A stretch of DNA of 64,000 nt from an uncultured Planktomarina sp. (GCA_951542345.1 CATOCM010000004.1:3111-67110); one strand, 5' to 3'; shown: positions 19,654 through 35,334, numbered from the stretch's first letter. A program made the numbers and translations. The notes: generated from the sequence alone by a model not told the origin.

Positions 19654-20580
19654 ATGGCCCTGCTTAATTTTGGATCCAAAGACGCGTCAATGGTAAAAGT
19701 TAATCCACAGATCGAAGCTTTTTTAAATGATTTTTCTATCGAGGTGATGCCCCGTACTGCTGAAAAGATTGAAGACTTTCGCGACCTATTGCCCAAAACG
19801 ACGCGGGTGTATGTTGCACATATCGAAGGCATGCCAATCGAGGATATGGTAATAACAGCCAAGCGATTGGCATCTGAGGGCTATGACGTAATGCCGCATT
19901 TCCCAGCACGCATAATCAAGGATGAAGCCACATTGCGCAATTGGATTGCCATGTATCAAGGTGAAGCAGGGGTCGATCAAGCTTTGCTGCTCGCGGGCGG
20001 TTTGACCACTCCACATGGAGATTATCACAGCGCCATGCAGTTGTTAGAATCTGGTGCTTTTGGAGATTCGGGGTTTAAACGCCTGCATGTGGCTGGCCAC
20101 CCAGAGGGTAACAAAGACATTGACCCAGACGGTGCAATGACTAATGTAGACTCCGCCCTGCATTGGAAACGAGCCTTTTCAGAAACATCAGACGCCGAGA
20201 TGGCCATCACAACACAATTTTGTTTTGAGGCCCAACCTGTGATTGCTTGGGCAAATAGATTGGCAGCCAATGGTATCACCTTACCAATACATATTGGCGT
20301 GGCGGGTCCTGCCAAGTTGCAGACCTTGATCAAGTTTTCCATCGCTTGCGGTGTTGGCGCATCACTACGCGTACTGCAGCGCCGCGCCAAAGATTTGACC
20401 AAATTGCTCCTGCCGTTCACGCCAGATATTTTCCTCACCGAGTTGGCAGCCCATAAGGCTGAGAACCCACAGTTTACTGTCTCGCACGTGCATTTTTTCC
20501 CACTTGGCGGGATTAAGGCGAATGCAAAATGGGCCATCGAAAACGGTGGATCTTCTGCCATTCCTGTCTCTCAATCCTAA
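19654..20580 (+). CDS. metF: Methylenetetrahydrofolate reductase family protein
   Basis: 308 aa. FSIEVMPRT ... HVAGHPEGN and the length fit the MTHFR fold. The stop is 12 nt before the next gene. Confidence 0.75.
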   Translation: MALLNFGSKDASMVKVNPQIEAFLNDFSIEVMPRTAEKIEDFRDLLPKTTRVYVAHIEGMPIEDMVITAKRLASEGYDVMPHFPARIIKDEATLRNWIAMYQGEAGVDQALLLAGGLTTPHGDYHSAMQLLESGAFGDSGFKRLHVAGHPEGNKDIDPDGAMTNVDSALHWKRAFSETSDAEMAITTQFCFEAQPVIAWANRLAANGITLPIHIGVAGPAKLQTLIKFSIACGVGASLRVLQRRAKDLTKLLLPFTPDIFLTELAAHKAENPQFTVSHVHFFPLGGIKANAKWAIENGGSSAIPVSQS

Positions 20581-20592
20581 GGATTTCTAAGA

Positions 20593-21657
20593 ATGACACG
20601 CACAGTTGTTGAGTCCAAAACCAAAACTGCAATTATCGGTTTTGACGAGCCCTTTTGCGTTATCGGGGAGCGCATCAATCCAACCGGCCGCAAAATTCTT
20701 AACGCCGAGCTTGAGGCTGGAGATTTTTCTCGAGTTGAAGCAGATGCCATTGCACAAGCGGCAGCTGGCGCATCTATATTAGACATCAACTCCGGTGCCG
20801 TCTTTTCCAACAAAATGGCTGAAGATCCTCGATATGCAGATAATAATTTTGTCGAGCCGACCTTGATGCGAGAGTTAGTGCTGCGGGTACAAGCCGTAGT
20901 GGATACACCTTTGTGTATTGACAGCTCCGTCCCTGGTGCTTTGGAAAATGGTCTGGCCGCAGCAGAAGGTCGACCCTTACTTAATTCTGTGACTGGCGAG
21001 GAAGATCGGCTTGAGCTAGTTTTGCCTTTGGTGAAAAAATATAACGTACCTGTGGTCGCAATATCCAATGACGATACGGGAATTTCTGAAGATCCTGATG
21101 TGCGCTTTGCTGTAGCCAAAAAGATTGTCGAACGGGCTGCTGATTTTGGAATTCCTGCTCATGACATCGTGGTAGATCCCCTGGTTATGCCCGTGGGTGC
21201 AATGGGCACAGCTGGCTTGCAGGTTTACACCTTAGTGCGGCGCTTACGTGATGAGCTTGGTGTGAACACGACCTGCGGTGCTTCTAATATCTCATTTGGC
21301 CTGCCAAATCGGCATGGGATAAATAACGCCTTCCTCCCCATGGCCATAGCAGCCGGCATGACATCTGCAATCATGAACCCGGTGATGTTGCCTGTGAGTC
21401 AAAAGAAAATTGCCGCAAAGAAAGAGGTTATCTGTGCCGCGGGCATCATTTTACCTGAGGGCATGGACGATGAATCCTTCGTCACCCTATTTGGTATGGG
21501 CTCAACACTGTCAAAAGCTGGTAAAGAAATGGAAGCCATTCGCGCAGCCAACTTTTTGATGGCAAATGATCCAAGCGGTGGTGCCTGGATCAAATTCAAC
21601 AAAGTGCCAGGTGATGATGTAGGTGGGCGTGGTGGACGAAAACGCCGCCGAGGCTAA
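20593..21657 (+). CDS. Pterin-binding methyltetrahydrofolate:corrinoid methyltransferase domain protein (MetH pterin-module-like / MtrH-like)
   Basis: 354 aa. VIGERINPTGRK, LDINSG, CIDSS and GASNISFGLPNR are hallmarks of the pterin-binding (DHPS-like) barrel. No B12-binding or Hcy-binding domain is present. The C-terminus is an Arg-rich tail, GGRGGRKRRRG. Confidence 0.75.
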   Translation: MTRTVVESKTKTAIIGFDEPFCVIGERINPTGRKILNAELEAGDFSRVEADAIAQAAAGASILDINSGAVFSNKMAEDPRYADNNFVEPTLMRELVLRVQAVVDTPLCIDSSVPGALENGLAAAEGRPLLNSVTGEEDRLELVLPLVKKYNVPVVAISNDDTGISEDPDVRFAVAKKIVERAADFGIPAHDIVVDPLVMPVGAMGTAGLQVYTLVRRLRDELGVNTTCGASNISFGLPNRHGINNAFLPMAIAAGMTSAIMNPVMLPVSQKKIAAKKEVICAAGIILPEGMDDESFVTLFGMGSTLSKAGKEMEAIRAANFLMANDPSGGAWIKFNKVPGDDVGGRGGRKRRRG

Positions 21658-22629: not shown

Positions 22630-23583
22630 ATGCAATATTTGATCGCGGACGTGGGTGGCACTAACACCCGCGTGGCGCTAGCCCATGAAGGGGTATTGCA
22701 GATTGACAGCATACAACGCTACCGCAATGCTGATCAATTTGGTGTTGCAGAAATTTTAATAGACTACCTACACACTCATGCCGCCGGAACGCACCCCTCA
22801 GCTGTTTGTATTGATGTAGCGGGACCTGTGGGCGAAGCTCAGGGCCAGCTAACCAATCTGGATTGGACTGTAACCACAGATCAACTATGTAAAGTGTCAG
22901 GAGCACAGCGTGGCGCCATTATCAACGACATGCAGGCCCAAGGTTTGGCCCTGTCGCATTTGCCCGCTGAGGCATTCCGTAGTGTGATCAAAGGTACGGC
23001 CCAGAGTGGTAACCGCATCGTGGTCAATGTGGGTACTGGGTTCAATTCTGCCGTAGTTTTGGGTGATGGGCCAAAACTCACCGTTCCAGGCAGTGAGACG
23101 GGGCATGTAAACCTCCCCGTGCCCAGCCCTGAGATATTTGAATTGCACCAATACCTTGCAGGCCGTTTTGGGTTTGCTTCTGCGGAGGAAGTACTGTCTG
23201 GTCGTGGATTGAGCCATGTGTATGCCTTTCTGGCAAAGCATAGCGCCTCAGAGGCTCTGCCCAGCTCACAACATATCATAGAAAATTTGGACAATGATCC
23301 GCTTGCGGTCAAATCTATAGCTATATTATTAGAGGTATTTGGCTGCGTATGCGGCAATCTTGCCCTCACACACCTACCCTTTGGCGGTATTTATTTAGTT
23401 GGTGGCGTGGCACAGGCACTGGCAGATCACTATCCAGACAGCCCATTCCACAGCGCATTTGCCGCAAAAGGACGATTTTCAGAATTTATGAGCCAGTTCT
23501 CAGTACATTTAGTGCAAGATGACCATGCGGCCCTTGCGGGATGTATCGCTCATCTGCAACTCTATGAGAGTGACACTTACTAA
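22630..23583 (+). CDS. glk: Glucokinase
   Basis: MQYLIADVGGTNTRVAL N-terminus; AAGGA lies 8 nt upstream of the ATG at 22630 (the ORF-track start is 22585). Confidence 0.85.
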   Translation: MQYLIADVGGTNTRVALAHEGVLQIDSIQRYRNADQFGVAEILIDYLHTHAAGTHPSAVCIDVAGPVGEAQGQLTNLDWTVTTDQLCKVSGAQRGAIINDMQAQGLALSHLPAEAFRSVIKGTAQSGNRIVVNVGTGFNSAVVLGDGPKLTVPGSETGHVNLPVPSPEIFELHQYLAGRFGFASAEEVLSGRGLSHVYAFLAKHSASEALPSSQHIIENLDNDPLAVKSIAILLEVFGCVCGNLALTHLPFGGIYLVGGVAQALADHYPDSPFHSAFAAKGRFSEFMSQFSVHLVQDDHAALAGCIAHLQLYESDTY

Positions 23584-23589
23584 TTTTTA

Positions 23590-24758
23590 AAATAAGCTAT
23601 CTCGGCAACATTCTCTAGATCACCAACGCCTGCGCAAACCACCGGTAAGTACAACTCTAGAAAAAGTACTAGGCCATCTTAACTTTGTGCAAGTCGATAG
23701 TATCAACACCATGGCGCAGGCCCATGACCTAGTTCTAAGGTCACGCCAACAATCCTACCAGCCCTTTGATTTGCGCAAAATGGTTGATCACGAACGCAGC
23801 GCTTTTGAAGGCTGGACCCATGACGCCTTAATCCTGCCCATAGAGGCCTTCCCCCATTGGCTTAATAAATTCACACGCGACGCTGTACTACTTCAACAGC
23901 ATTGGAAAACTTGGCATCGGGGAGATTTTCTAGCACAAACGCAGACTATTTGGACCAAACTGCCAGCCAAGGGCCCTTGGGCTCACGCGATGTTGGCACG
24001 CAAAAAAACGCAGCAACGGCGGTTGGTGGGATTGGCATCTCTCCAAAGCCGCACTTGAATATCTTTGGCGCACTGGCCACATTGCCGTGACCCGTAGGGA
24101 TGGGTTTAGCAAAGTTTATGATTTGATCCAAAACGTGATCCCTGCCACGTATTTCCAATATCGCCCATCCGCTGCTGACAGCACCGATTGGGCTTGCCAC
24201 TTAGCTTTACGGACTCTGGACTTCGCCACTCCAAAATAAATCGAAGAATTTTATGATTTTGTTAACCTTGCAGAAGTGGGCCAGTAGCTGGAACTAAAGC
24301 AGGCTCAGGGTGAAATCCACTGGATAAATATCGAGGGCGCAGATGATACACAACGACCACAGTTAATCTTTGCTGAAAACTGGAGAAAACTAAAAACTCC
24401 GTTGCAATTCACCCAGCAGGGGCGCACTCTAAGTCCCTTTGATCCAGCCCTCGGGAACCGGCAGCGCGCACAAGATTTGTTTGGCTTCTCATACAGAATT
24501 AAAATATTTATTCCTGCCAGTAAGCGTGTCTACGGCTGCTATGTGTTTCCAATGTTGGAAGACGATAAACTAATTCGCCGAATTGAAGTCAAGGCAAATA
24601 GAACAAAGAAAAATTTAGATTTACTGGTTATCTGGCCCGAAGTCAGAACCCACCTCACCCCGGCAGGAAAAGCTCGCATTCCGGGAGAATTATTCCGAGT
24701 ATGCGGCTTGGCAGTCTGTGAAAGATTAAGTGGTCTTGAGGTTTTGACAAACGCGTAA
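23590..24758 (+). pseudogene. ycaQ: Decayed ycaQ-family gene (winged-helix DNA glycosylase, DUF1006)
   Basis: YcaQ-like segments lie in three frames. LEKVLGHLNFVQVDSINTMAQAHDLVLRSR is in frame 2 and GPLGSRD in frame 1. GGWWDWHLSKAALEYLWRTGHIAVTRRDGFSKVYDL and RVYGCYVFPMLEDDKLIRRIEVKANR are in frame 0. In-frame stops occur at TAA 24237 and TAG 24285, and no start codon remains for the N-terminus. Confidence 0.8.
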
Positions 24759-24762
24759 TCGG

Positions 24763-27700
24763 CTAGATATCCAGTTTTAACACAGTATTTTTGTGAAAGG
24801 CTCGGCTCTGGCACAGGATCATAGTAGTTTCGCGTTGCGCGGCAGATAAAACAAAATCTCGGTGCTCTACCACACCAGAAATTAATGTGCATTTACACAC
24901 ACCACAGAGACCATCAGAACATTTCACGTCCACAGAGATACCCGCCGCAATGAGCGCGTCACTAGCCGACTGATCTACGCTCACAGAAACTTTTTGGCCA
25001 TCGTTTAGCTCAATCTCAAATGGAAAGTTTACCCAATCAGGCATATCCGGAACCGCAAAAAACTCCGCATGCAGCGCTATATCAGGATAACCCATGAAAC
25101 GGGCTTGATCTAGAATAGATGTCATATAGGCATTCGGTCCACAAACATAGATATGAATACCAGCCTCATAAGGCGGAACAACTGAAGTAATATCGAGACG
25201 GCTGCCTTGATCTGAGTAATGTTTGCTGCATTTTTTGGCCCAAGGCTGCCCCTCAAAATCACTGTCAAAAGCAGCTGATGCTTGCGTGCTGGCGGAATAC
25301 ATCAGCTTAAAATGACGTCCCGCGCTATCCAGTTCATGGGCAAAAGCAATCATCGGCGTGACACCAATTCCCCCACCAAACAACAAGGATAGACTTGCAG
25401 AGGCCTCCAGTGCAAAATGGTTGATTGGTTTGGAAACAAACACCCGCCGGCCCTCCTCAAAGATCCGTTGCATCAGCTTTGAGCCACCACGGCCCTCAGG
25501 CTCCAAGAGTACGGCAATTTCATAGCAGCTGCGATCTGAAGGATTCCCACACATAGAATATTGACGCAGGAATTCTGGGGCCACAACGATGTCCAAATGT
25601 GCCCCTGCTGTCCAAAGTGGCAAATCCGCACCATCTACGGCTACCAATCTATATTTCATAACAGCTCCAACACTTTGAGTGACTTGGTCCACAATCATCT
25701 GAATGACCGGCGCCTCCTGATCGTTTTGGTACAGATGTAAGTGATCGCGGGCGCCACTGGCAGATTTAACTTGGTAGGCCTCTGCGGTAATCATCGCTTG
25801 ATAGGCCTCAATTCCCGCCTCACGATCCATGAGTGCCGGATAGGGATAAGGATGTGGTGCCAAGGGAGCTGGATAGACTGCCAAGGTTTGGTCGGCATAT
25901 TTAAGGTCCAGGTCCTTCTGAAGTGCACGCGCATTTACCATATGTGGGCTTGGGGCATAGGATCCCTGCTCAGTTAGCTCCAGATCCCACCACCATTTTT
26001 TTACAGTGTTCAACTCACCGTGACCGGCCATATCATCCAGCTTGGCCAAAACTGGAGCCATCTGCGGTACATTCATCGCGGCCCAACGAAAAGGCGCTTC
26101 AGAAAATAACCCTTCTAGGTTCCACGGGCAGGTCTTCATGCAACGGCCACACATGGCCCCACCAAGAGTATTGATCCGATAAGTAGCACATTTTTGACTA
26201 TCAGACTTCCAAATTTCATAGCCATTAAACATAAGTTTTGGCCCAGCTGTTATAGCACCAGACGGGCATTCACGCGCACATTTATTGCAGCTGTCACAGA
26301 ATTTTTGCAAACCAAAATCAATCGGATTATCATGCGCCACAGGCAATGATGTGGTAACCGCACCTGACTTCAACCGTGGCCCTAGGAACGGGTTCAAGAT
26401 CACCTCACCAATCCGGCTTACCTCCCCAAGACCCGACAGTAGAAGCAAGGGAGGTTGTAGCACCTCGCCATCCATTACCGTGTGAGCCTTGGCAGAATAG
26501 CCCATATTGCGGATATGCTGGGCCAAAATACCACCCAACAGAGAAAACCGCAGGTAGGCCCGCATGGATTGCGCAACGCTGATCCAATCATCGCCCGAAG
26601 CGCCCTCCATAGTCTCAAAACCCTGATCCACAATCATGCTAATCGCATGGTCGTGGGGCGGGATAATTGGTGTGCCGTAGGCATCATGAGAGTACCAGCT
26701 CCAAGCAGGGCATCGCGACAGGCCCGCGGCATCAATGCCGAGAAAGTAACTCGCACCCTTTATATTTTTGGCTGCAATCTCTGGGGAAATTAATTTGACC
26801 TCTTTGGCGGGTTCACCGTCTTGCAAAAGTACAAACGCTCCCAATAGTCGACGTTGCGCAGTGCTAGGAGCAGCTTTACGCACGTAGTGACCTCCGGTAG
26901 CACCTTTTTGCACCTGCGGGCCCATATCTCCAAACTGTGCACGTGCAAACATATCTGTACGTTTAGGCACCCGCGCAATATTGGGCTCGTCCATATAGGT
27001 GGTTGGTGTTTCCACCCGTTTGAGTGTCTCAAAAGGATGAGCACCACTAACATAATCCCGCTTAAAATAAGGATCATGATTGCTCCGGCAGGCACCACCA
27101 TGCCGCCCCAAGACCCATTCCATACAGTTCAGGGCGGATTTTGGTTGCTTAGCGGCCAAAGGCTTATCAAAAGCCAAAGGCATATCGGTCGTCACAGCAG
27201 CCAAGCCAAAACGGCGGCCCAGCCAAGGATGAACTATCTGATCACCCTCGACCTGTGTTAAGCCCGCCTTTACTGCCAACCGCGAAAGCTCCACATCAGT
27301 AGTAGTGGCACTATGCGCACGCGCGCTAAAGCCTAAGACCCGAAGGTAGTTGGCCAGTACTGTTGCCGTCTCTGCACCCAAGATTGCAGCCCGTTCGGCC
27401 TGCCCGTCTTGCACCCAATCACAGCCAGCCTCATCACGCCTCGGGTCGCGGCGATAGTCTACTAAAAATACTAAAGCCCCAGTGTGATGCGTGATAGACT
27501 CTGGTTTTGCGGCCATACTTTCCTTGAGATCAGCCATGATAAGATCAATGCCCGCCGCTAAGGTTTTAGTCTGCCGGGTACTTAAGGCATATGCCAAACG
27601 TTTAACGTCTGGATTCAGGCGGGGAATTGCGAGGTGGTCATCTGTAGCCAATGCCGTAAGACCCACCATGGCTATGTCATTAAAATAGGCGAATGCCTTA

Positions 27701-27963
27701 AGATGATTGGATCGCTCTTGTAAATCTGTTGGGATGTCTGAGGCAACAGAGTTTGCGTTGCCATCCCGCACCGCATCCATCATGGCCTGAAATTCCGCCA
27801 TAGCGGGTACAATACTGGCACTCCCAGCAGGGCGTTGAAAACTCAACATGGGCCAAGGAGCAATGGCGGACAAATCTGAGCACTTCGAGGCACGTTTCAA
27901 GCGCTCTGTTGGAAAGCGTCCCATATGGATGGGACGGTTGCGATCTGAAAATAGCTTACTCAT
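24763..27963 (-). CDS. rdhA: Self-sufficient (non-respiratory) reductive dehalogenase: RdhA domain fused to a PDR-like FMN/NAD(P)H/[2Fe-2S] reductase
   Basis: 1066 aa from the ATG at 27963, which overlaps the xdhC stop as ATGA. The RdhA part has two 4Fe-4S motifs, CDSCNKCARECP (~26290) and CGRCMKTCPW (~26130), and a duplicated nitroreductase-like repeat as in NpRdhA-type enzymes. There is no twin-arginine signal. The C-terminal part has RQYS, GGGIGVTPM and the plant-type 2Fe-2S motif CSDGLCGVC...C. Confidence 0.8.
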   Translation of the reverse strand: MSKLFSDRNRPIHMGRFPTERLKRASKCSDLSAIAPWPMLSFQRPAGSASIVPAMAEFQAMMDAVRDGNANSVASDIPTDLQERSNHLKAFAYFNDIAMVGLTALATDDHLAIPRLNPDVKRLAYALSTRQTKTLAAGIDLIMADLKESMAAKPESITHHTGALVFLVDYRRDPRRDEAGCDWVQDGQAERAAILGAETATVLANYLRVLGFSARAHSATTTDVELSRLAVKAGLTQVEGDQIVHPWLGRRFGLAAVTTDMPLAFDKPLAAKQPKSALNCMEWVLGRHGGACRSNHDPYFKRDYVSGAHPFETLKRVETPTTYMDEPNIARVPKRTDMFARAQFGDMGPQVQKGATGGHYVRKAAPSTAQRRLLGAFVLLQDGEPAKEVKLISPEIAAKNIKGASYFLGIDAAGLSRCPAWSWYSHDAYGTPIIPPHDHAISMIVDQGFETMEGASGDDWISVAQSMRAYLRFSLLGGILAQHIRNMGYSAKAHTVMDGEVLQPPLLLLSGLGEVSRIGEVILNPFLGPRLKSGAVTTSLPVAHDNPIDFGLQKFCDSCNKCARECPSGAITAGPKLMFNGYEIWKSDSQKCATYRINTLGGAMCGRCMKTCPWNLEGLFSEAPFRWAAMNVPQMAPVLAKLDDMAGHGELNTVKKWWWDLELTEQGSYAPSPHMVNARALQKDLDLKYADQTLAVYPAPLAPHPYPYPALMDREAGIEAYQAMITAEAYQVKSASGARDHLHLYQNDQEAPVIQMIVDQVTQSVGAVMKYRLVAVDGADLPLWTAGAHLDIVVAPEFLRQYSMCGNPSDRSCYEIAVLLEPEGRGGSKLMQRIFEEGRRVFVSKPINHFALEASASLSLLFGGGIGVTPMIAFAHELDSAGRHFKLMYSASTQASAAFDSDFEGQPWAKKCSKHYSDQGSRLDITSVVPPYEAGIHIYVCGPNAYMTSILDQARFMGYPDIALHAEFFAVPDMPDWVNFPFEIELNDGQKVSVSVDQSASDALIAAGISVDVKCSDGLCGVCKCTLISGVVEHRDFVLSAAQRETTMILCQSRAFHKNTVLKLDI

Positions 27964-28931
27964 GTGGCTTTTTGTCTTAGGCACTGGGTAATTTCCGCAA
28001 GAATGGAAACAGCAATTTCCGCCGGAGATTTACTGCCAATGGATAGTCCAACGGGACCTTGAATGCGGTCGAATTGTGCAGGAAGCACTCCCAATTCCAA
28101 CATTGATGTACGACGTTTGGCATGTGTGCGCGTCGAACCCAATGCACCTATATAAAACGCCTCGGTAGCCAAAACAGCTTGCAGGGATGGCGTATCCATT
28201 TTCGGATCATGGGTTAATGTCACGAGAGCTGTACGATTGTCTATGATTAAGTCTGCTAAAGCATCCTCAGGCCAATCAACGATAAGCTCTTGGTTCAAAA
28301 ACCTCTGCGGGCTAGCGAACGACTCACGTGGATCAATAATAGTAACATGATAGCCAGCCATTTGTGCCATGGGAGCCAGAAATTGAGCAATATGAACAGC
28401 GCCAATTAGCACCAATCGCAGTGGTGGGTTTTGAATATGCGTATAAATTTTCCGCTCAACACCACCCGAACCAGAAAATTCGTATGGATGGCTCTGAGGC
28501 GTGAGCACTGCTCGCTCCCAAGTATCTAAATTGACCCGTAGGCCTATAGCTTGACGTGCAGCATCCGCACGCTCCAAATTTTCCAACAAGGAAGGCGCAA
28601 TGCCCTGACCTATACCCACTGGCTCAACCATGATCCTTATGGTACCGCCACAAGCCAATCCAACGGCGAAAGCGTCGGCATCATTCACACCGTACTCCAA
28701 TAGCCTACAAGTACCATTAGCCAAGGTTTCCAAAGCTTCCAAAACCACAGCGCCCTCAACGCAGCCTCCAGAAACTGAGCCATGAAAAGATCCATCCTCA
28801 CAAACAACCAATTGCGCACCCACTGGACGGGGCGACGAGCCCCATGTACCCAACACAGTCGCTAAAGCCACTTTTTGGCCCCCTTTGTGAAATGCAGCAG
28901 CCAAGCCGCCCATATGCTTTGAAACAATCAT
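27960..28931 (-). CDS. xdhC: XdhC/CoxI-family molybdenum-cofactor insertion accessory protein
   Basis: 323 aa. It has an N-terminal XdhC_CoxI-like region (GSVSGGCVEGAV) and a C-terminal Rossmann-like region (LVLIGAVHIAQFLAPMAQMAGYHVTIIDPR). Confidence 0.85.
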   Translation of the reverse strand: MIVSKHMGGLAAAFHKGGQKVALATVLGTWGSSPRPVGAQLVVCEDGSFHGSVSGGCVEGAVVLEALETLANGTCRLLEYGVNDADAFAVGLACGGTIRIMVEPVGIGQGIAPSLLENLERADAARQAIGLRVNLDTWERAVLTPQSHPYEFSGSGGVERKIYTHIQNPPLRLVLIGAVHIAQFLAPMAQMAGYHVTIIDPRESFASPQRFLNQELIVDWPEDALADLIIDNRTALVTLTHDPKMDTPSLQAVLATEAFYIGALGSTRTHAKRRTSMLELGVLPAQFDRIQGPVGLSIGSKSPAEIAVSILAEITQCLRQKAT

Positions 28932-30148
28932 TTTAGCATTCCAATCAATCGTTTCTTGTGATCCGCATGCAAACCATTTTTCAAACTATCAGATAATTCT
29001 TGCAGACTGTCCAGATTATGACAGGCTACGAAGGACGATACATAGGGGAGCATGGCGCGAATGCCGGCCGCTTGTGGGGAAAACTGCCCCCACCGCAGTA
29101 GTGGATTGAGCCATATCAACTCACGAGTTTGTAGTGCCATCCGTGCCATTTCACTCTCCAGTTTTGCGATACCCTCACGCTCCAGCCCATCCGTAATCAG
29201 CAGCACTACTGAAGGGGTCGACAGTACACGTCGCGCCCAGTGCCTGTTGAAGTCTCCAAGACTACTGGCAATCCGAGTACCGCCTTCCCAGTCACGCACG
29301 TGGCTGCCAATGGCCCTTAGCGCTGCGTCTGGGTCTTTGATCGTCAGCAAGGGCGAGATATTGTGCAACCGTGTACCAAAAGTGAAACCATGCACCGTCG
29401 CCCATGATTGTCCCTGAACCTGCGCCACAGAATGCACAAAATGCATCATCATTCTGCTATAACTTGTCATTGAACCTGATATGTCGCAAAGTACCACAAG
29501 GTTAAGCCTTCGGGGTTTGGCGCGGCGTTTGGGAAGATGTATCATTTCACCGCCACTTCGGCGCGCACTTTGCAAAGCCCTACGACGATCAATTTGTACT
29601 GCATTTGCGGCCAAGCCATGCCGCCGTCCCGGTACTTTAGGTAAATTCAGTCCCATGGTTCGAATTGCGATTTCAGCCGCACAGATTTCGGCTGCAGTCA
29701 TGGCATCAAAATCTTTCTCCGACAGTTTTTCCACGTCAGAATGCGAAAACTGCGCATCAATTTCTAATTGTTCTTGTTGTGGTGCACAGCGCGGCTTGCC
29801 CCCCCCAGAAGCCATTGCTTCAGCTGCTCGGGTTTGAGCAGGCTCCATCGAGCTATCCACTGGCGGTGCTGTTATCACGGGCAAAAGATTGGTAATCATA
29901 TTTTCTAAAAATTCAGGGTCACGCCAAAACATGGCAAAAACCTGATCAAATACCAACAAATGATCAGCCCGAGAAACAATCATTGCACGTAGAGTGGTAT
30001 GAAAATCTAGGCGATTAGTAAACCCCACCGCCGCGACCGCCCGCAGAGCTTCAAGGATTTGCGCGGTACCCACCGGCACCCCCGCCCGCCTCAAAGCGCG
30101 AGAAAAATAGACAATGTTATCCGGTAGTGTTCCGGCAGCTGAAGTCAT
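28928..30148 (-). CDS. coxE: VWA-domain protein, CoxE-like
   Basis: 406 aa. The MIDAS motif is in LVVLCDISGSM. The gene has ATGA overlaps with both neighbours. Confidence 0.85.
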   Translation of the reverse strand: MTSAAGTLPDNIVYFSRALRRAGVPVGTAQILEALRAVAAVGFTNRLDFHTTLRAMIVSRADHLLVFDQVFAMFWRDPEFLENMITNLLPVITAPPVDSSMEPAQTRAAEAMASGGGKPRCAPQQEQLEIDAQFSHSDVEKLSEKDFDAMTAAEICAAEIAIRTMGLNLPKVPGRRHGLAANAVQIDRRRALQSARRSGGEMIHLPKRRAKPRRLNLVVLCDISGSMTSYSRMMMHFVHSVAQVQGQSWATVHGFTFGTRLHNISPLLTIKDPDAALRAIGSHVRDWEGGTRIASSLGDFNRHWARRVLSTPSVVLLITDGLEREGIAKLESEMARMALQTRELIWLNPLLRWGQFSPQAAGIRAMLPYVSSFVACHNLDSLQELSDSLKNGLHADHKKRLIGMLK

Positions 30149-31032
30149 TTCAGCGCCTGCATGTCCTGTTTTATCTGATCCAAAATGCGCGCCGCCGCAC
30201 CACCAGTAATTTTGGCGATATCGTCTTGATATTTAAGTACCGCGCCTATCGTGTCGGTAATCACATCCGGCGACAGAGCTACAATATCCAGCGCAATAAG
30301 GCATTTGGCCCAGTCAAGCGTTTCCGCGAGTCCGGGGCGCTTGAACAGATCCTCTTCACGCAGCTTTTGTATAAAGGCAACTACCTCTAGGCTTAACGCC
30401 TGTTTGGCCTCCGGCACACGGGCCGTCAAAATCTCCATCTCACGGTCAAAGTCTGGGTAATCCACCCAATGATACAAACAGCGCCGTTTCAGAGCGTCAT
30501 GTACCTCGCGAGTACGATTTGATGTCAGGATTACGATAGGCGGGTCTTGCGCCTTGATAACACCAAGCTCAGGCACAGTGACTTGAAAATCTGAGAGGGC
30601 TTCCAACAGGAATGCCTCAAAAGGTGCATCTGAACGATCAATCTCATCAATCAACAGCACGGGTGGGCCGGAGGCATGCGGCTCAACCGCTTTCAGCAAG
30701 GCGCGTTTGATTAGATATTTTTCATTATAGATATCTGCCTCGCCTGCCCCATTTCGCATAGCCAGCATTTGAGCCGCAAAATTCCATTCATAAACTGAAG
30801 TCGACGTGTCCAACCCTTCGTAGCATTGCAAACGTATCAGGTCTCTGCCCAATCCTTTAGCTATCACCTTGGCTAACTCAGTTTTACCAACGCCTGCTTC
30901 ACCTTCTAAGAAAATTGGGCGGTTTAGGGTGAGCGATAGATAGGTCAGCGTGGCCAATGACCTATCTGCCACATAGCCCTCAGAAGCTAGAAAATCAGAA
31001 GTTTTATCAATAGATTTAGGTATTTGTCGCAT
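30145..31032 (-). CDS. coxD: MoxR-type AAA+ ATPase, CoxD-like
   Basis: Walker A in EGEAGVGKTELAKV and Walker B in VLLIDEIDR. The start was set at ATG 31032, which has GGGA 9 nt upstream. The ORF-track start at 31200 would overlap coxM. Confidence 0.85.
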   Translation of the reverse strand: MRQIPKSIDKTSDFLASEGYVADRSLATLTYLSLTLNRPIFLEGEAGVGKTELAKVIAKGLGRDLIRLQCYEGLDTSTSVYEWNFAAQMLAMRNGAGEADIYNEKYLIKRALLKAVEPHASGPPVLLIDEIDRSDAPFEAFLLEALSDFQVTVPELGVIKAQDPPIVILTSNRTREVHDALKRRCLYHWVDYPDFDREMEILTARVPEAKQALSLEVVAFIQKLREEDLFKRPGLAETLDWAKCLIALDIVALSPDVITDTIGAVLKYQDDIAKITGGAAARILDQIKQDMQALK

Positions 31033-31056
31033 GTTATTCATTCCCAAACATACAAC

Positions 31057-31083
31057 ACCAGCCCCAAAATTTTGGAGCTGGTG
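31057..31083 (-). terminator. Strong intra-operon hairpin between coxM and coxD (attenuator, partial terminator or processing site)
   Basis: The minus-strand RNA is CACCAGCUCCAAAAUUUUGGGGCUGGUG. That gives arms of about 12 bp around an AAUU centre, including one G.U pair. It starts 20 nt after the coxM stop and is followed by UUGUAUGUUU. Confidence 0.55.
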
Positions 31084-31102
31084 TGAGATGTAAATAGGCA
31101 GG

Positions 31103-31930
31103 CTAGACCAAAGCGCGTTTGGCCATAACCTTAATAAGATTAGCGCGGTAAGCCGCAGTCCCATGTAAGTCGGACATAAGCCCATCCGCCGAGACCTCAA
31201 TCGCTTCGATCGCTGTTGTGGACCAATCTGCAGATAGAGCCGCTTCTAATCCAGCGTGGCGGTAAACACCATTATCGCCCGCCCCAGTCACAGCAACGCA
31301 CACATCACCGTCAACAGATTTGGCAATAAATACGCCCACCATTGCATAGCGGGACGCCGGGTTGGGAAATTTGCCATAACCGCCCACCGCTGGGGCCTGA
31401 AAGCTCACCGCAGTGATAATCTCATTATCAGCTAACGCCGTTGCAAACATACCTTGGAAGTAATCTTCAGCTTTGATTTCACGACTGTTGGTATGGATTG
31501 TAGCTCTCAAAGCCATTAACGCGGCGGGATAATCAGCTGCAGGATCATTATTGGCTACAGAGCCACCGATGGTGCCACGATGGCGTACCGCAGGATCACC
31601 AATGTTAGCTGCCAATCCAGAGATTACAGGACAAACTTTAGCCAACTCTGTATCACCAGCCACTTCTGCATGCGTGGTCATGGCACCAATGGTTATCGTC
31701 TCACCACCATCTGCCTTCATTATACCCATTTTTTTGCGCTTAGTGATAGTAACGCCACGCAACGCCACAGCCTGGCTCAGATCAATCAGATCGGAGGGTG
31801 CAGCCAGTCTTTGCTTCATAGTAGGGATCAAAGTCTGCCCCCCAGCCAATATTTTACCATCGTCTGTTTTGGCTAACAGTGCTGCCGCGTCTTGCGCCGT
31901 GGAAGCTTTATGAAAATTGGTCTCATACAT
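31103..31930 (-). CDS. coxM: Molybdo-hydroxylase medium (FAD-binding) subunit, CoxM-like
   Basis: 275 aa. ILAGGQTLIP and the CO-dehydrogenase-flavoprotein C-terminal region AAYRANLI are present. Confidence 0.88.
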   Translation of the reverse strand: MYETNFHKASTAQDAAALLAKTDDGKILAGGQTLIPTMKQRLAAPSDLIDLSQAVALRGVTITKRKKMGIMKADGGETITIGAMTTHAEVAGDTELAKVCPVISGLAANIGDPAVRHRGTIGGSVANNDPAADYPAALMALRATIHTNSREIKAEDYFQGMFATALADNEIITAVSFQAPAVGGYGKFPNPASRYAMVGVFIAKSVDGDVCVAVTGAGDNGVYRHAGLEAALSADWSTTAIEAIEVSADGLMSDLHGTAAYRANLIKVMAKRALV

Positions 31931-31942
31931 CGTCCAAACTCC

Positions 31943-34309
31943 TTATTCAGCTGCTAATTTGATGCTTGCAGCCTGCAAAGCAGTCCAGACCGCAGCAGGG
32001 GTGGCAGGCATAGAAAGATTATTGTTGCCAATGGCATCTGTAATTGCATTGATTACAGCCGGTGGAGATCCAATGGCACCTGCTTCACCACAACCTTTCA
32101 TGCCAAGGGGATTTCCTGGGCATGTGGTTGACGCGTGATGCACTGAATAATTTGGCAAGTCATCGGCCCGTGGCATTGTATAATCCATGTAGCTGGCCGA
32201 CAATTGTTGGCCAGCGTCATCATAGACCACATTTTCCAGCATCGCTTGGCCAATTCCCTGAGCTATCCCACCATGCACTTGGCCTTCTACAATCATAGGA
32301 TTAATTATGGTACCAAAATCATCAGATGCTACAAATTGGACAACTTCAGTCACACCGGTATCCGGATCCACCTCAACCTCACAGATATAACATCCCGCTG
32401 GGAAGGTGAAGTTAGTTGGATCGTAGAATGCAGTTTCTTTAAGGCCAGGCTCCATCCCATCAGGAATATTATGCGCGGTATAAGCCGCCAGACCTACTTC
32501 ATGCCAAAGCATCTGCTTATCGGTACCAGCAACTTTCACAGCACCACCCTCAATCACTATGTCATCTTCACCAGCTTCCAGGACATGGGCCGCAATCTTT
32601 TTGACCTTAGCTTCGACCTTATCCATAGCTTTCACGATGGCAGACATGCCCACAGCCCCAGAACGGGATCCATAGGTGCCCATTCCAAATTGGACTTTAT
32701 CAGTATCGCCATGCACAATTTTGATATTCTCAGTCGGAAGATCAAAGCGTTCAGCTACAATCTGAGCGAATGTGGTTTCATGACCTTGGCCGTGGCTGTG
32801 AGAACCAGTGAGAATTTCAATAGTGCCCACTGGATTAACGCGCACTTCGGCACTTTCCCATAGACCTACACCGGCGCCCAAGCTACCCACAGCCGCTGAA
32901 GGTGCGATGCCACAAGCTTCAATATAGTTGGAATAGCCGAGGCCACGAAGCTTACCACGGCCCAGCGCCTCAGCTTTGCGGGCTTTAAATCCGGCTACGT
33001 CAGCCGCCTTTTGCGCTTGCTTTTGGTTGGTTGCAAAGTCACCGCTATCATAAGCCATAATCACTGGGGTTTGATGAGGAAAGGAAGTTACGAAATTTTT
33101 AGCACGAAGTTCAGCGGGATCGACTCCCATTTCACGCGCAGCAGTTTCCATAATCCGTTCAATTACATAGCACGCTTCAGGACGACCAGCACCACGGTAT
33201 GCATCAACCGGCACTGTATTAGTATAAACGGCCTGCACATCACAATAGATATTGGCTATGTTATACTGACCCGAGAGTAGTGTCCCGTAGAGATAGGTTG
33301 GTACTGCCGAACTGAACAGCGACATATAGGCGCCGAGGTTAGCCTTAGTGTTGACCTTCAAACCTACAATCATACCATCTCCATCAAAACCTATTTTGGC
33401 AGTTGATACGTGGTCGCGGCCATGGGCATCAGTCAAAAAAGCTTCAGTGCGATCAGAGGTCCATTTAACTGAACGCCCAGATTTCATAGCAGCCCATAGG
33501 CAAGCAATTTCTTCAGGATAAATGTAGATTTTTGATCCGAATCCACCACCTACGTCCGGCGCTATCACCCTCAACTTATGCTCCGGAGCTACGTTATAAA
33601 ACGCAGAGAGCACCAAACGCGCTACATGGGGATTTTGGCTGGTTGTATAGAGTGTATAATGGTCTTCAGCATCGTTAAATGTGGCAATCGCAGATCTAGG
33701 CTCCATCGGGTTGGGCGCCAAGCGATTGTTGGTGATATCCATTTCCGTTACATGAGCCGCAGTGGCTAGTGCTGCATCAGTAGGGGCTAAATCACCTATT
33801 TCCCAATCAAAAATCAAATTACCGGGCGCATTCTCATGCAGTTGCGGCGCACCGCCCGCTAGGGCCTGCAGCGACCCCACTACCACAGGCAGTTCCTCAT
33901 AGGTAACGACGACTGCTTCAGCTGCTAATGTGGCCAGAGATTTAGTATCAGCCACAACAATGGCCACCGCATCCCCAACATAGCGCACTTTTTCAGTGGC
34001 TAGGGCCGACCATGCGCCCATATTCATCGGGCTGCCATCTTTGGATGTAACGCCCCAGCCGCAAATGATATTACCAATGCCATCTGAGACTAATTCTGCG
34101 CCCATAAGCACTGTTTCAACACCCGCCATTGCCATTGCAGCAGAAGTATCGATCGAGACAATGCGCGCATGGGCATGCGGGCTGCGAACAAAGGCTGCAT
34201 AGGCTTGATTAGGCTCTACAATATCGTCGGTATACCGACCTTTTCCAGTAATGAATCTTTTATCTTCCTTGCGTAAGACCCGGGCTCCAATTCCTTCAGA
34301 CATTATCAT
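31943..34309 (-). CDS. coxL: Molybdopterin-binding large subunit, form-II CoxL-like (xanthine dehydrogenase family)
   Basis: 788 aa. The active-site loop reads AYRGAGR (33182-33202), not the form-I AYXCSFR. The gene order S-L-M is also the form-II arrangement. Confidence 0.88.
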   Translation of the reverse strand: MIMSEGIGARVLRKEDKRFITGKGRYTDDIVEPNQAYAAFVRSPHAHARIVSIDTSAAMAMAGVETVLMGAELVSDGIGNIICGWGVTSKDGSPMNMGAWSALATEKVRYVGDAVAIVVADTKSLATLAAEAVVVTYEELPVVVGSLQALAGGAPQLHENAPGNLIFDWEIGDLAPTDAALATAAHVTEMDITNNRLAPNPMEPRSAIATFNDAEDHYTLYTTSQNPHVARLVLSAFYNVAPEHKLRVIAPDVGGGFGSKIYIYPEEIACLWAAMKSGRSVKWTSDRTEAFLTDAHGRDHVSTAKIGFDGDGMIVGLKVNTKANLGAYMSLFSSAVPTYLYGTLLSGQYNIANIYCDVQAVYTNTVPVDAYRGAGRPEACYVIERIMETAAREMGVDPAELRAKNFVTSFPHQTPVIMAYDSGDFATNQKQAQKAADVAGFKARKAEALGRGKLRGLGYSNYIEACGIAPSAAVGSLGAGVGLWESAEVRVNPVGTIEILTGSHSHGQGHETTFAQIVAERFDLPTENIKIVHGDTDKVQFGMGTYGSRSGAVGMSAIVKAMDKVEAKVKKIAAHVLEAGEDDIVIEGGAVKVAGTDKQMLWHEVGLAAYTAHNIPDGMEPGLKETAFYDPTNFTFPAGCYICEVEVDPDTGVTEVVQFVASDDFGTIINPMIVEGQVHGGIAQGIGQAMLENVVYDDAGQQLSASYMDYTMPRADDLPNYSVHHASTTCPGNPLGMKGCGEAGAIGSPPAVINAITDAIGNNNLSMPATPAAVWTALQAASIKLAAE

Positions 34310-34315
34310 TCCCCC

Positions 34316-34798
34316 CTATACATTCGTCATCTTGGACGCACCGTCCACGATAGATTTCACAATATTGTGGTAGCCAGTGCAGCGGCAAATATTACCTTCC
34401 AACTCATGGCGTATGGCGTCCTCAGTGAGTTCTTTGCCCTGCGTATGATATCGTGTCACCATATCTGTGGCGCTCATGATCATACCTGGAGTACAAAACC
34501 CGCATTGTAGGCCGTGGTTTTCTTTGAACGCCACTTGCATCGGATGCAATTCATCTTTTGATTTGGCGAGGCCTTCAACCGTAGTCACTGCTAGACCCTC
34601 TGCGCTAGCAGCCAACATGGTGCAAGATTTCGTCGCTTGACCGTCCACGTGCACCACACATGCACCGCATTGGCTGGTGTCACAGCCCACATGGGTACCA
34701 GTCAGTCTCAGGTGATCTCGAATATATTCAACAAGCAGGGTATTATCTGCCACCTCACGGGATACAGGTTTCCCGTTTACAGTCATCGCAATTTTCAT
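34316..34798 (-). CDS. coxS: [2Fe-2S] small subunit, CoxS-like
   Basis: [21 protein letters not shown] and [11 protein letters not shown] motifs. The start was set at [11 protein letters not shown] (34798), which has GGGAGAG upstream. Confidence 0.9.
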
Positions 34799-34818
34799 TT
34801 TCTCTCTCCCTAGCCATA

Positions 34819-35334
34819 TTATTTTTTGAAAATATGTAAAATTCTTTTCCAAAATCCAATTTTTTGCATTGGTACTTCAGCCACTGTTAAGTTGGCCCCT
34901 TCCACTTCGCTCTGAAACGTCTCAAAAAACTGATTTGCCATTTGACTGACAAAACTGTCGATGATGCGAGAGCCTAGCTGTGCTAACTTTCCACCAATTT
35001 GCGCCTTTACCGCATAACTTAATTTTGTTCCTAATTCATCGGCCTCAAGAGTTACATCCGCACCCCCTCGGGCAAACCCGGCAACGCCGCCTTCACCCTT
35101 ACCACTAATGCGCAGACTATATGGGGCATTGAGCTCACTTAAATGCACGGTTCCCTTGAACTTAGCTTTCACGGGGCCAACCTTTTGAACAACAGTAGCC
35201 TCGAAACCACCCTCGACGTCGCCCGTAAGGCTCTGGCACCCTGGCACGCACTTCCTCAGTATCTCTGGGTCAAGCAGGTTTGCCCAAACTTTTTCAGGTG
35301 ATGCAACTATAATGCGGTCGTCTTCAAAATCCAA
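34819..35334 (-). CDS. coxG: CoxG-family SRPBCC protein
   Basis: 171 aa with [28 protein letters not shown]. It uses a TTG start with GGGAGG 8 nt upstream. Confidence 0.8.

Follow-up and report, generated by a model that had tools for sequence, protein, structure and literature searches.

A stretch of 64,000 nucleotides (nt) from an uncultured Planktomarina sp. (hereafter the window) contains eight genes in the order coxG-coxS-coxL-coxM-coxD-coxE-xdhC-rdhA, all on the minus strand between positions 24763 and 35334, of which the last, rdhA, encodes a reductive dehalogenase. Comparison with related loci leads us to propose, at a probability of roughly 0.55, that rdhA has been slotted into the last place of a canonical form II carbon monoxide dehydrogenase (CODH)-like operon, where it would be co-expressed with the other genes while having no obligatory metabolic link to the molybdenum (Mo) enzyme encoded there. 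We infer both the co-transcription and the absence of metabolic coupling from the autonomy of RdhA, the MoeA/MocA-like gene found in operons outside the clade, the loss of cox genes and the relocations of rdhA, the varied neighbours of RdhA genes in other lineages, the lack of a regulator, transporter or aromatic-catabolic gene nearby, and a conserved hairpin between the structural and the accessory genes. The components are of already known kinds; no description was found in the literature of the cox-rdhA fusion or of the fact that abundant pelagic roseobacters conserve it. The initial annotation of the window had known of no such linkage, and literature searches found no paper on rdhA-cox, rdhA-XdhC or rdhA-molybdopterin linkage and nothing relevant on Planktomarina dehalogenases.

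The terminal gene encodes a self-sufficient reductive dehalogenase

The whole rdhA gene (24763-27963, minus strand) encodes 1066 amino acids (aa) and scored 189.7 bits against the reductive dehalogenase profile TIGR02486 (curated cut-off 160.35). Its catalytic part, at about aa 1-745 (25729-27963, minus strand), is that of a catabolic reductive dehalogenase with a corrinoid and two [4Fe-4S] clusters: residues 10-750 matched the NpRdhA structure 4RAS with E=6.2e-152, and PceA (4UQU) was matched with E=1.8e-29. The C-terminal part, at about aa 761-1066 (24763-25683, minus strand), is a phthalate-dioxygenase-reductase (PDR)-like module with a 2Fe-2S domain (PF00111), which matched the PDR structure 2PIA with E=1.3e-43 at aa 775-1069 of the 1073-aa open reading frame (ORF) and also matched the P450-PDR fusions 6KBH and 6LAA. 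The self-sufficient RdhA-PDR architecture proposed in the initial annotation was thereby borne out by TIGR02486, 4RAS and 2PIA, the N-terminal 700 aa matching both RdhA profiles and the NpRdhA structure.

The motifs SMRAY, GPRLKS, TYRIN, CDSCNKCARECP and CGRCMKTCP were all found in RdhA and were invariant in an alignment that included the characterised enzyme JtRdhA. Two of these mark the [4Fe-4S] clusters, namely CDSCNKCARECP (aa 556-567) and C592...CGRCMKTCP (aa 605-613); PF13484 and PF12838 exceeded their cut-offs and the cluster cysteines were invariant in the alignment. In the PDR module the FMN site (RQYS), the NAD(P)H site (GGGIGVTP) and the plant-type [2Fe-2S] site (CSDGLCGVCKC...C) are intact. 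Ser466, Tyr470, Lys532 and Arg596 align with S422, Y426, K488 and R552 of NpRdhA, which comprise the catalytic Tyr-Lys/Arg proton-donor and phenolate-binding residues of that enzyme (PMC7565698). NpRdhA of Nitratireductor pacificus (4RAS, 6ZXU) shares these active-site polar residues with the window enzyme but naturally has no reductase module, and several residues of its hydrophobic pocket differ from those of the window RdhA (F290 to M, A419 to V, F310 to Y and P311 to V), positions at which all fusion-type enzymes differ from it.

The N-terminus of RdhA, MSKLFSDRNRPIHMGRFPTERLKR, aligned with the cytoplasmic N-terminus of NpRdhA, and no RRxFLK motif followed by a hydrophobic stretch was seen in it, as judged by inspection, with no dedicated signal-peptide predictor run. 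No gene for a small membrane protein (rdhB) flanks rdhA, its neighbours being xdhC and an alkZ-like probable pseudogene. Along 100% of its length RdhA is 63% identical to JtRdhA (P0046), a debrominase and deiodinase from Jhaorihella thermophila that acts on ortho-halogenated phenolics. JtRdhA tolerates O2, depends on NADPH with tight coupling, works without a partner protein and matures in E. coli without any XdhC (PMC10463259). The related BhbA of Comamonas sp. 7D-2 is encoded in a plasmid bromoxynil pathway (PMC10463259). JtRdhA, BhbA and the window RdhA have in common a vestigial N-terminal domain, a corrinoid domain, two [4Fe-4S] clusters and a PDR-like module with FMN, NAD(P)H and [2Fe-2S] sites; all lack a Tat signal and rdhB, and the catalytic Ser, Tyr, Lys and Arg as well as the cluster cysteines are invariant among them. 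The window gene differs from the BhbA/JtRdhA type in its context, since it closes a form II cox operon of the core chromosome and is translationally coupled to the gene before it.

Because the profile and structure matches are accompanied by intact catalytic, [4Fe-4S] and PDR motifs, the terminal gene is, as judged from its sequence, a genuine gene for a catabolic, self-sufficient, non-respiratory RdhA of the BhbA/JtRdhA type. Given the 63% identity and an active-site pocket identical to that of JtRdhA, a cobalamin- and NAD(P)H-dependent enzyme acting on the same substrate class is predicted, most likely with the same ortho-halophenolic debromination and deiodination activity. Electrons would pass from NAD(P)H through FMN and the [2Fe-2S] cluster to the two [4Fe-4S] clusters and on to cobalamin, which, with O2 present, would remove Br or I from the position ortho to a phenolic OH, while Tyr470, Lys532 and Arg596 would serve in proton supply and phenolate binding.

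rdhA stands where the closest outside form II operons carry a MoeA/MocA-like gene

In total 170 rdhA-PDR loci were compared. Species-representative genomes and metagenomes contributed 80 each, and exact look-ups added a further 10; the two sets of 80 were drawn from more than 586 (GTDB representatives) and more than 408 (metagenomes) rdhA-PDR loci, respectively. The eight gene calls of the window recur on six metagenome contigs (L001-L006) encoding exactly identical RdhA protein. The full cluster, coxG/S-L-M-D-E-xdhC-rdhA, was also present in L098 and L100 (RdhA 87% identical), L088 (76%) and L089 (70%), where xdhC and rdhA either overlap by 4 nt or are separated by 2 nt. The linkage is therefore not unique to one genome but is conserved in at least five species-level lineages of a single clade of Planktomarina-like roseobacters (RdhA 70-100% identical). 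The neighbourhood survey gave a divided answer: the linkage is kept within the clade, but rdhA was absent from all six cox operons compared outside it, and among 65 RdhA lineages (clustered at 80% identity) none outside the clade has form II cox genes beside rdhA.

Those six outside operons are orthologous form II operons with CoxL 80-87% identical to that of the window. In L091/L092, L174 and L177 (CoxL 86-87%) the order coxG-S-L-M-D-E-xdhC is followed by a MoeA/MocA-like gene of 532-539 aa, a fusion of MoCF_biosynth and NTP_transf_3 domains that overlaps xdhC by 4 nt (15345-16964 in L091; 14290-15888 in both L174 and L177), and the window xdhC is the positional orthologue of xdhC in the canonical L091, L174 and L177 operons. 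L093 and L175 have coxSLM only, and L176 has coxDE-coxGSLM. The canonical form II operon thus ends in a MoeA/MocA-like gene, whereas in the window rdhA holds that position. A second difference is that two-component or sigma-54-type regulators stand upstream in L091, L174 and L177 while the window operon has no adjacent regulator. No MoeA/MocA-like terminal gene was found in the 64-kb window, and when all rdhA loci were searched, the only return was a partial match, unrelated to it, at two loci of Rhizobiaceae. The simplest history would be that rdhA replaced the terminal MoeA/MocA-like gene in the clade ancestor, in which a stand-alone gene of the BhbA/JtRdhA type would have taken the position after xdhC that elsewhere belongs to this putative molybdopterin-cytosine-dinucleotide synthesis gene.

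The cox-linked state is ancestral in the clade because it is basal in the RdhA tree and present on several branches. From that state the clade tree has coxGSLMDE lost once with rdhA retained, and rdhA relocated alone twice (L087 and L097). In the sub-clade L007-L010 and L094-L096, which includes strain IMCC1909 and Planktomarina metagenome-assembled genomes (MAGs), coxGSLMDE is precisely lost and hibadh-xdhC-rdhA is left at the syntenic locus. The xdhC gene of this deletion lineage is under purifying selection, with a ratio of nonsynonymous to synonymous substitution rates (dN/dS) of 0.13-0.16, and a reading of it as a decaying remnant was rejected because its ORF is intact in all copies at this dN/dS. 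No convincing deletion-scar similarity appeared when the hibadh-xdhC spacer of the deletion lineage was aligned with the hibadh-coxG and coxE-xdhC regions of the window. In L097, the lone rdhA follows a GAF/PAS cyclase gene. The loss of coxGSLMDE and the two lone copies indicate that RdhA persists without the Cox enzyme.

Several further observations concern these loci. In the xdhC-only loci, which include L099 (for example L008, 9034-13201), xdhC overlaps rdhA by 8 nt. L091 was tried as the canonical form II operon of the xdhC-only genomes and was rejected on base composition (G+C 49.5% versus 56-59% in L007-L010); the other candidates traced belonged to different species. The lone rdhA of L087 (1-7752), 84% identical and sister to the window copy, lies on a contig of low G+C (44.6%) beside phage-type integrase and transposase-like helix-turn-helix (HTH) genes, a setting that suggests single-gene mobility of rdhA.

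Operon layout and the form II enzyme

Family assignments of all cluster genes were made by Pfam and NCBIfam profile searches, which bore out the initial annotation of each gene; the eight-gene order, the common strand, the gaps of 6-70 nt and the 4-nt overlaps were likewise confirmed by the ORF listing and the metagenome gene calls. On the minus strand, the cluster begins with coxG (34819-35334; 171 aa, SRPBCC/CoxG, PF06240 COXG E=6.7e-32; called on L001-L006 as well), followed by coxS for the small [2Fe-2S] subunit (34316-34798; 160 aa, PF01799 Fer2_2 3.6e-30 and PF00111 Fer2), coxL for the form II CODH-like molybdopterin large subunit (31943-34309, alternative start 34303; Ald_Xan_dh_C and MoCoBD_1/2) and coxM for the FAD-binding medium subunit (31103-31930; 275 aa, PF00941 FAD_binding_5 2e-39). 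The maturation genes are coxD for an AAA+ ATPase (30145-31032, minus strand; 295 aa, PF00004/PF07728, with 250 bits to the MadB-family AAA ATPase NF047784), coxE for a protein with a von Willebrand factor A (VWA) domain (28928-30148, minus strand; 406 aa, PF05762 VWA_CoxE 7.6e-53) and xdhC for a coxF-type molybdenum cofactor chaperone (27960-28931, minus strand; 323 aa, PF02625 XdhC_CoxI and PF13478 XdhC_C). The first four spacers, from coxG to coxD, measure 20, 6-12, 12 and 70 nt, while the coxD/coxE, coxE/xdhC and xdhC/rdhA junctions are each a 4-nt ATGA stop/start overlap, the last at 27960-27963. A common strand with short or overlapping junctions throughout is in keeping with a single operon.

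The large subunit of the window belongs to the form II (BMS) CODH-like molybdo-hydroxylases, as the initial annotation had recognised, because it has the motif AYRGAGR at residues 370-376 (window 33182-33202; VDAYRGAGRPE at residues 368-378) and scored 638.6 bits against the form I equivalog TIGR02416, under its cut-off of 991.15. AYRGAGR in place of AYXCSFR defines form II, the role of which was still described as unclear in 2026 (PMC13203968). The catalytic Glu742 lies inside GCGEAG, MoCoBD_1 and MoCoBD_2 were matched over their full length, and the best matches in the PDB were CoxL 8UEM, CutL 1FFU and the quinoline oxidoreductase 1T3Q. With the form I Mo-Cu CO dehydrogenase of Oligotropha carboxidovorans (CoxMSL, 1N5W) the window enzyme shares a common family and the accessory proteins CoxD, CoxE, CoxF and CoxG, scoring 512-597 bits against form I large subunits; the Cu-binding Cys of the form I motif AYRCSFR is replaced by Gly, and the subunit order is S-L-M rather than M-S-L. 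CO oxidation is not predicted for this CoxL, given Gly at the Cu-ligating position and the score under the TIGR02416 cut-off. With the form II (BMS-clade) operon coxG-S-L-M-D-E-xdhC(coxF)-mocA-like the window shares AYRGAGR, the S-L-M order, the accessory genes and an inter-cistronic hairpin, and orthologues of its CoxL in Rhodobacterales, Nitratireductor and Paracoccus are 80-95% identical. We read the locus as a canonical cox-type operon of form II, very strongly conserved among Alphaproteobacteria, that belongs to the core chromosome of a roseobacter resembling Planktomarina (RCA group), with a structural part (coxG-S-L-M), a hairpin and a maturation part (coxD-E-xdhC).

A conserved hairpin separates the structural and maturation genes

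The terminator scan and RNA folding identified a stem-loop in the 70-nt coxM-coxD spacer (31055-31084, minus strand), with a GC-rich stem of 13 bp and a U-rich tail and a folding energy of -28.2 kcal/mol (z=-4.4). It recurs with compensatory stem changes in six of seven orthologous form II operons, whether rdhA is present or not. In form it looks like a terminator, an attenuator or a stabiliser, and it probably acts as an attenuator or stabiliser setting the ratio of structural to maturation gene products. With such a conserved, terminator-like structure after coxM, the 'one operon' may be two expression units; the arrangement probably yields an abundant coxGSLM part and a read-through part made up of coxD, coxE, xdhC and the terminal gene. 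The start of rdhA would be translationally coupled to the stop of xdhC through the ATGA overlap, so that RdhA would be made at the low read-through level of the maturation segment. In this way rdhA would piggy-back on the expression of the operon and share no pathway with the Mo enzyme.

Mo-hydroxylases beside rdhA in other lineages

Neighbours were counted within 5 kb of rdhA in the 65 RdhA lineages, of which nine had DctM, three had pobA and five had a large subunit of the xanthine dehydrogenase (XDH) family, the five representing three independent origins. About 60 RdhA lineages outside the clade have varied neighbours, including TRAP DctM upstream, pobA with or without AraC, choline sulfatase/betA and LamB/YcsF, and the gaps between rdhA and these genes are often 8-20 nt. 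A pobA-like flavin monooxygenase gene lies directly upstream or downstream of rdhA in L027, L090, L116, L136, L142 and L159, in some cases with AraC; such pairing fits the expected route, in which a halogenated 4-hydroxybenzoate would be debrominated and then hydroxylated to protocatechuate.

Besides the window clade, two groups of loci place an orthologous RdhA-PDR (60-63% identical) directly beside an XDH-family Mo-hydroxylase that is non-orthologous to form II Cox (27-31% identity) and encoded downstream or divergently. In a Ruegeria clade (21 of 24 loci, for example L013 9012-18058), a divergent LysR gene precedes rdhA. Genes for FAD, FeS and Mo subunits (xdhB'-xdhC'-xdhA') follow rdhA in the same orientation after a spacer of about 95-128 nt, and a second LysR gene comes next. 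The Mo enzyme of this clade is 27-28% identical to CoxL, has the motif AAYRAPGAP and gave 4-hydroxybenzoyl-CoA reductase as its best PDB match. That identity would have suited 4-hydroxybenzoate as an RdhA product; it was rejected, since all three subunits scored far under the equivalog cut-offs (462 versus 994 bits for alpha, 112 versus 404 for beta) and no CoA ligase gene was found nearby. In L166/L167 (RdhA 60%; L167 176-9036), a XDH/AOX-like enzyme with an FAD subunit, an FeS-Mo fusion and the motif GAFRGFGVPQ is encoded divergently from an amidohydrolase-rdhA-TetR unit, a cluster that resembles one for N-heterocycle catabolism with a reductive dehalogenase. With LysR or TetR regulators of their own, both groups look like dedicated catabolic modules, unlike the window locus, and the Ruegeria LysR/rdhA/xdhB'C'A' locus in particular has the appearance of a dedicated four-gene module.

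Weighing a metabolic coupling of RdhA and the Mo enzyme

Some of these observations weigh against insertion of rdhA without a metabolic role in common with the operon. At least five species-level lineages, with RdhA identities as low as 70%, have kept the fusion with a tight junction, suggesting selection for co-expression. In addition, two other RdhA lineages (Ruegeria; L166/L167) independently adjoin different XDH-family hydroxylases, and the more distant flanks, 1.06 Mb of sequence 5-10 kb away from rdhA, contained no large subunit of the XDH family; near pairings together with empty far flanks suggest that Mo-hydroxylase adjacency may exceed chance. The excess is modest, with three independent adjacencies among about 65 lineages where chance would give roughly 0.5-1. 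Roseobacter genomes carry several copies and many paralogues of XDH-family genes, so some chance adjacency is expected, although same-strand, operon-like arrangements of rdhA and a Mo-hydroxylase are less probable by chance, which is suggestive and not established.

The strongest competitor, which we consider possible though somewhat unlikely, is that the Mo-hydroxylase and RdhA act on the same halogenated (hetero)aromatic. In one chemically attractive version, the hydroxylase would install an OH beside the halogen and so create the ortho-halo-hydroxy motif that this RdhA class requires; in the other, it would act on the dehalogenated product. The two halves would be redox-complementary, as hydroxylation with water releases two electrons (to NAD(P)H or directly) and dehalogenation uses two, the net result being an O2-independent replacement of halogen by hydroxyl. 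Such coupling could account for the translationally coupled fusion being conserved in at least five lineages and for the three independent adjacencies involving three enzyme subfamilies (form II Cox, Ruegeria and L166/L167), and the XDH-family frequency of 3/65 lineages equals that of pobA, the biochemically expected partner, with no XDH large subunits in the far flanks. By contrast, the window CoxL is an ordinary, 80-95% conserved orthologue of enzymes whose operons carried rdhA in 0/6 cases outside the clade; within the clade one lineage dropped the cox genes but retained rdhA, and on two occasions rdhA moved away by itself. The residues lining the RdhA pocket are moreover invariant between the window enzyme, JtRdhA and the pobA-linked relatives, so that no new substrate is indicated, and three origins in about 65 lineages exceed the rough expectation only marginally. 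Nor is any XDH-family enzyme known to hydroxylate halophenolics.

The two-enzyme pathway put forward in the initial annotation was consequently not sustained by the wider comparison, in which the outside operons lacked rdhA, cox was lost once and rdhA moved alone twice; nor was its suggestion of a function for form II cox genes in general, the linkage with rdhA being limited to one clade. A broader form of the idea is doubtful, namely that a catabolic NAD(P)H-driven RdhA and an XDH-family Mo-hydroxylase constitute a recurrent redox-complementary module with which marine Alphaproteobacteria process halogenated (hetero)aromatics. Such a module would have arisen independently on at least three occasions, with form II Cox in Planktomarina-like bacteria, with an enzyme resembling 4-hydroxybenzoyl-CoA reductase in Ruegeria, and with an XDH/AOX-like enzyme plus an amidohydrolase in L166/L167. 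If this were true, the Planktomarina case would supply the orphan form II 'CO dehydrogenase' with its first class of physiological substrates, and XdhC, where retained, might even act for both cofactor systems.

Adjacency without co-transcription, through an rdhA promoter inside xdhC or a hairpin after coxM that ends most transcripts, is very improbable. The strong conserved hairpin with its U-rich tail would suit it, as would the expression of xdhC-rdhA in the deletion lineage without the cox promoter region. Against this, the ATGA overlap leaves no intergenic space, overlapping stop and start codons are typical of co-translated genes, and promoter-like matches numbered 14 versus 16.3 expected from shuffled sequence, a promoter scan that was not used further. 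The four genes of coxD-E-xdhC-rdhA would in any case remain a single unit, all of them being downstream of the hairpin. Least likely of all is a functional XdhC-RdhA pair, in which XdhC would mature the cobalamin/Fe-S dehalogenase (for example by corrinoid holding or insertion) with the cox structural genes incidental: four to eight genomes or contigs without coxGSLMDE do keep xdhC directly upstream with the 8-nt overlap and the dN/dS given above, and xdhC-rdhA is the tightest and most conserved junction of the clade, but about 60 other lineages and the two lone clade copies have no xdhC near rdhA, JtRdhA matures in E. coli without it (PMC10463259), the window XdhC diverges as fast as its positional orthologues in canonical cox operons, and the XdhC of the deletion lineage may serve other Mo-hydroxylases encoded elsewhere.

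Form II cox genes are among the most widespread orphan molybdoenzyme genes of marine and soil Alphaproteobacteria, and the fusion with a debrominase gene gives a concrete, testable hypothesis for form II Cox substrates. Being lineage-specific and dispensable, it probably tells more about the slotting of accessory genes into operons than about form II Cox chemistry, and the comparative evidence makes it more likely that form II Cox would be negative with RdhA-type substrates. The Ruegeria and L166/L167 clusters are probably better places to seek a real RdhA/Mo-hydroxylase pathway. For the organism itself, the predicted activity implies aerobic debromination of natural bromophenolics by these abundant pelagic bacteria.

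Genomic setting

Temperate and polar oceans harbour large numbers of Planktomarina (RCA-group) bacteria. The closest genomes to the window are Planktomarina MAGs and strain IMCC1909, which encode RdhA of 76-80% identity and show synteny on either side of the locus, and a CoxL cluster at 93% identity carries the Planktomarina name from its sources; the initial assignment to Rhodobacterales was correct. The rest of the window is core chromosome, with sucCD, sucAB-lpd, lptFGD, pdxA, prfA and sugar-acid catabolism genes, and no regulator, transporter or aromatic-catabolic gene was found near the operon. Within this one clade G+C at the same syntenic locus spans a wide range, being 44.6-49% in the window, L087, L088 and L097, 52-54% in L098, L100 and L089, and 56-59% in the xdhC-only lineage.

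Convergent with rdhA, an alkZ-like (PF06224) gene at about 23381-24752 on the plus strand is broken into short ORFs in two frames and stops within a few nt of the end of rdhA; L089 and L008 have intact versions of 397-460 aa, and the window copy is probably a pseudogene. Further along, at 19654-21657 on the plus strand, lie genes for a 308-aa protein without a Pfam match and, after it, a Pterin_bind/CdhD-like protein of 354 aa. This pair adjoins the locus in all relatives and may be a corrinoid-dependent methyltransferase system, in which case another function related to B12 would be encoded at a distance of about 3 kb from rdhA.

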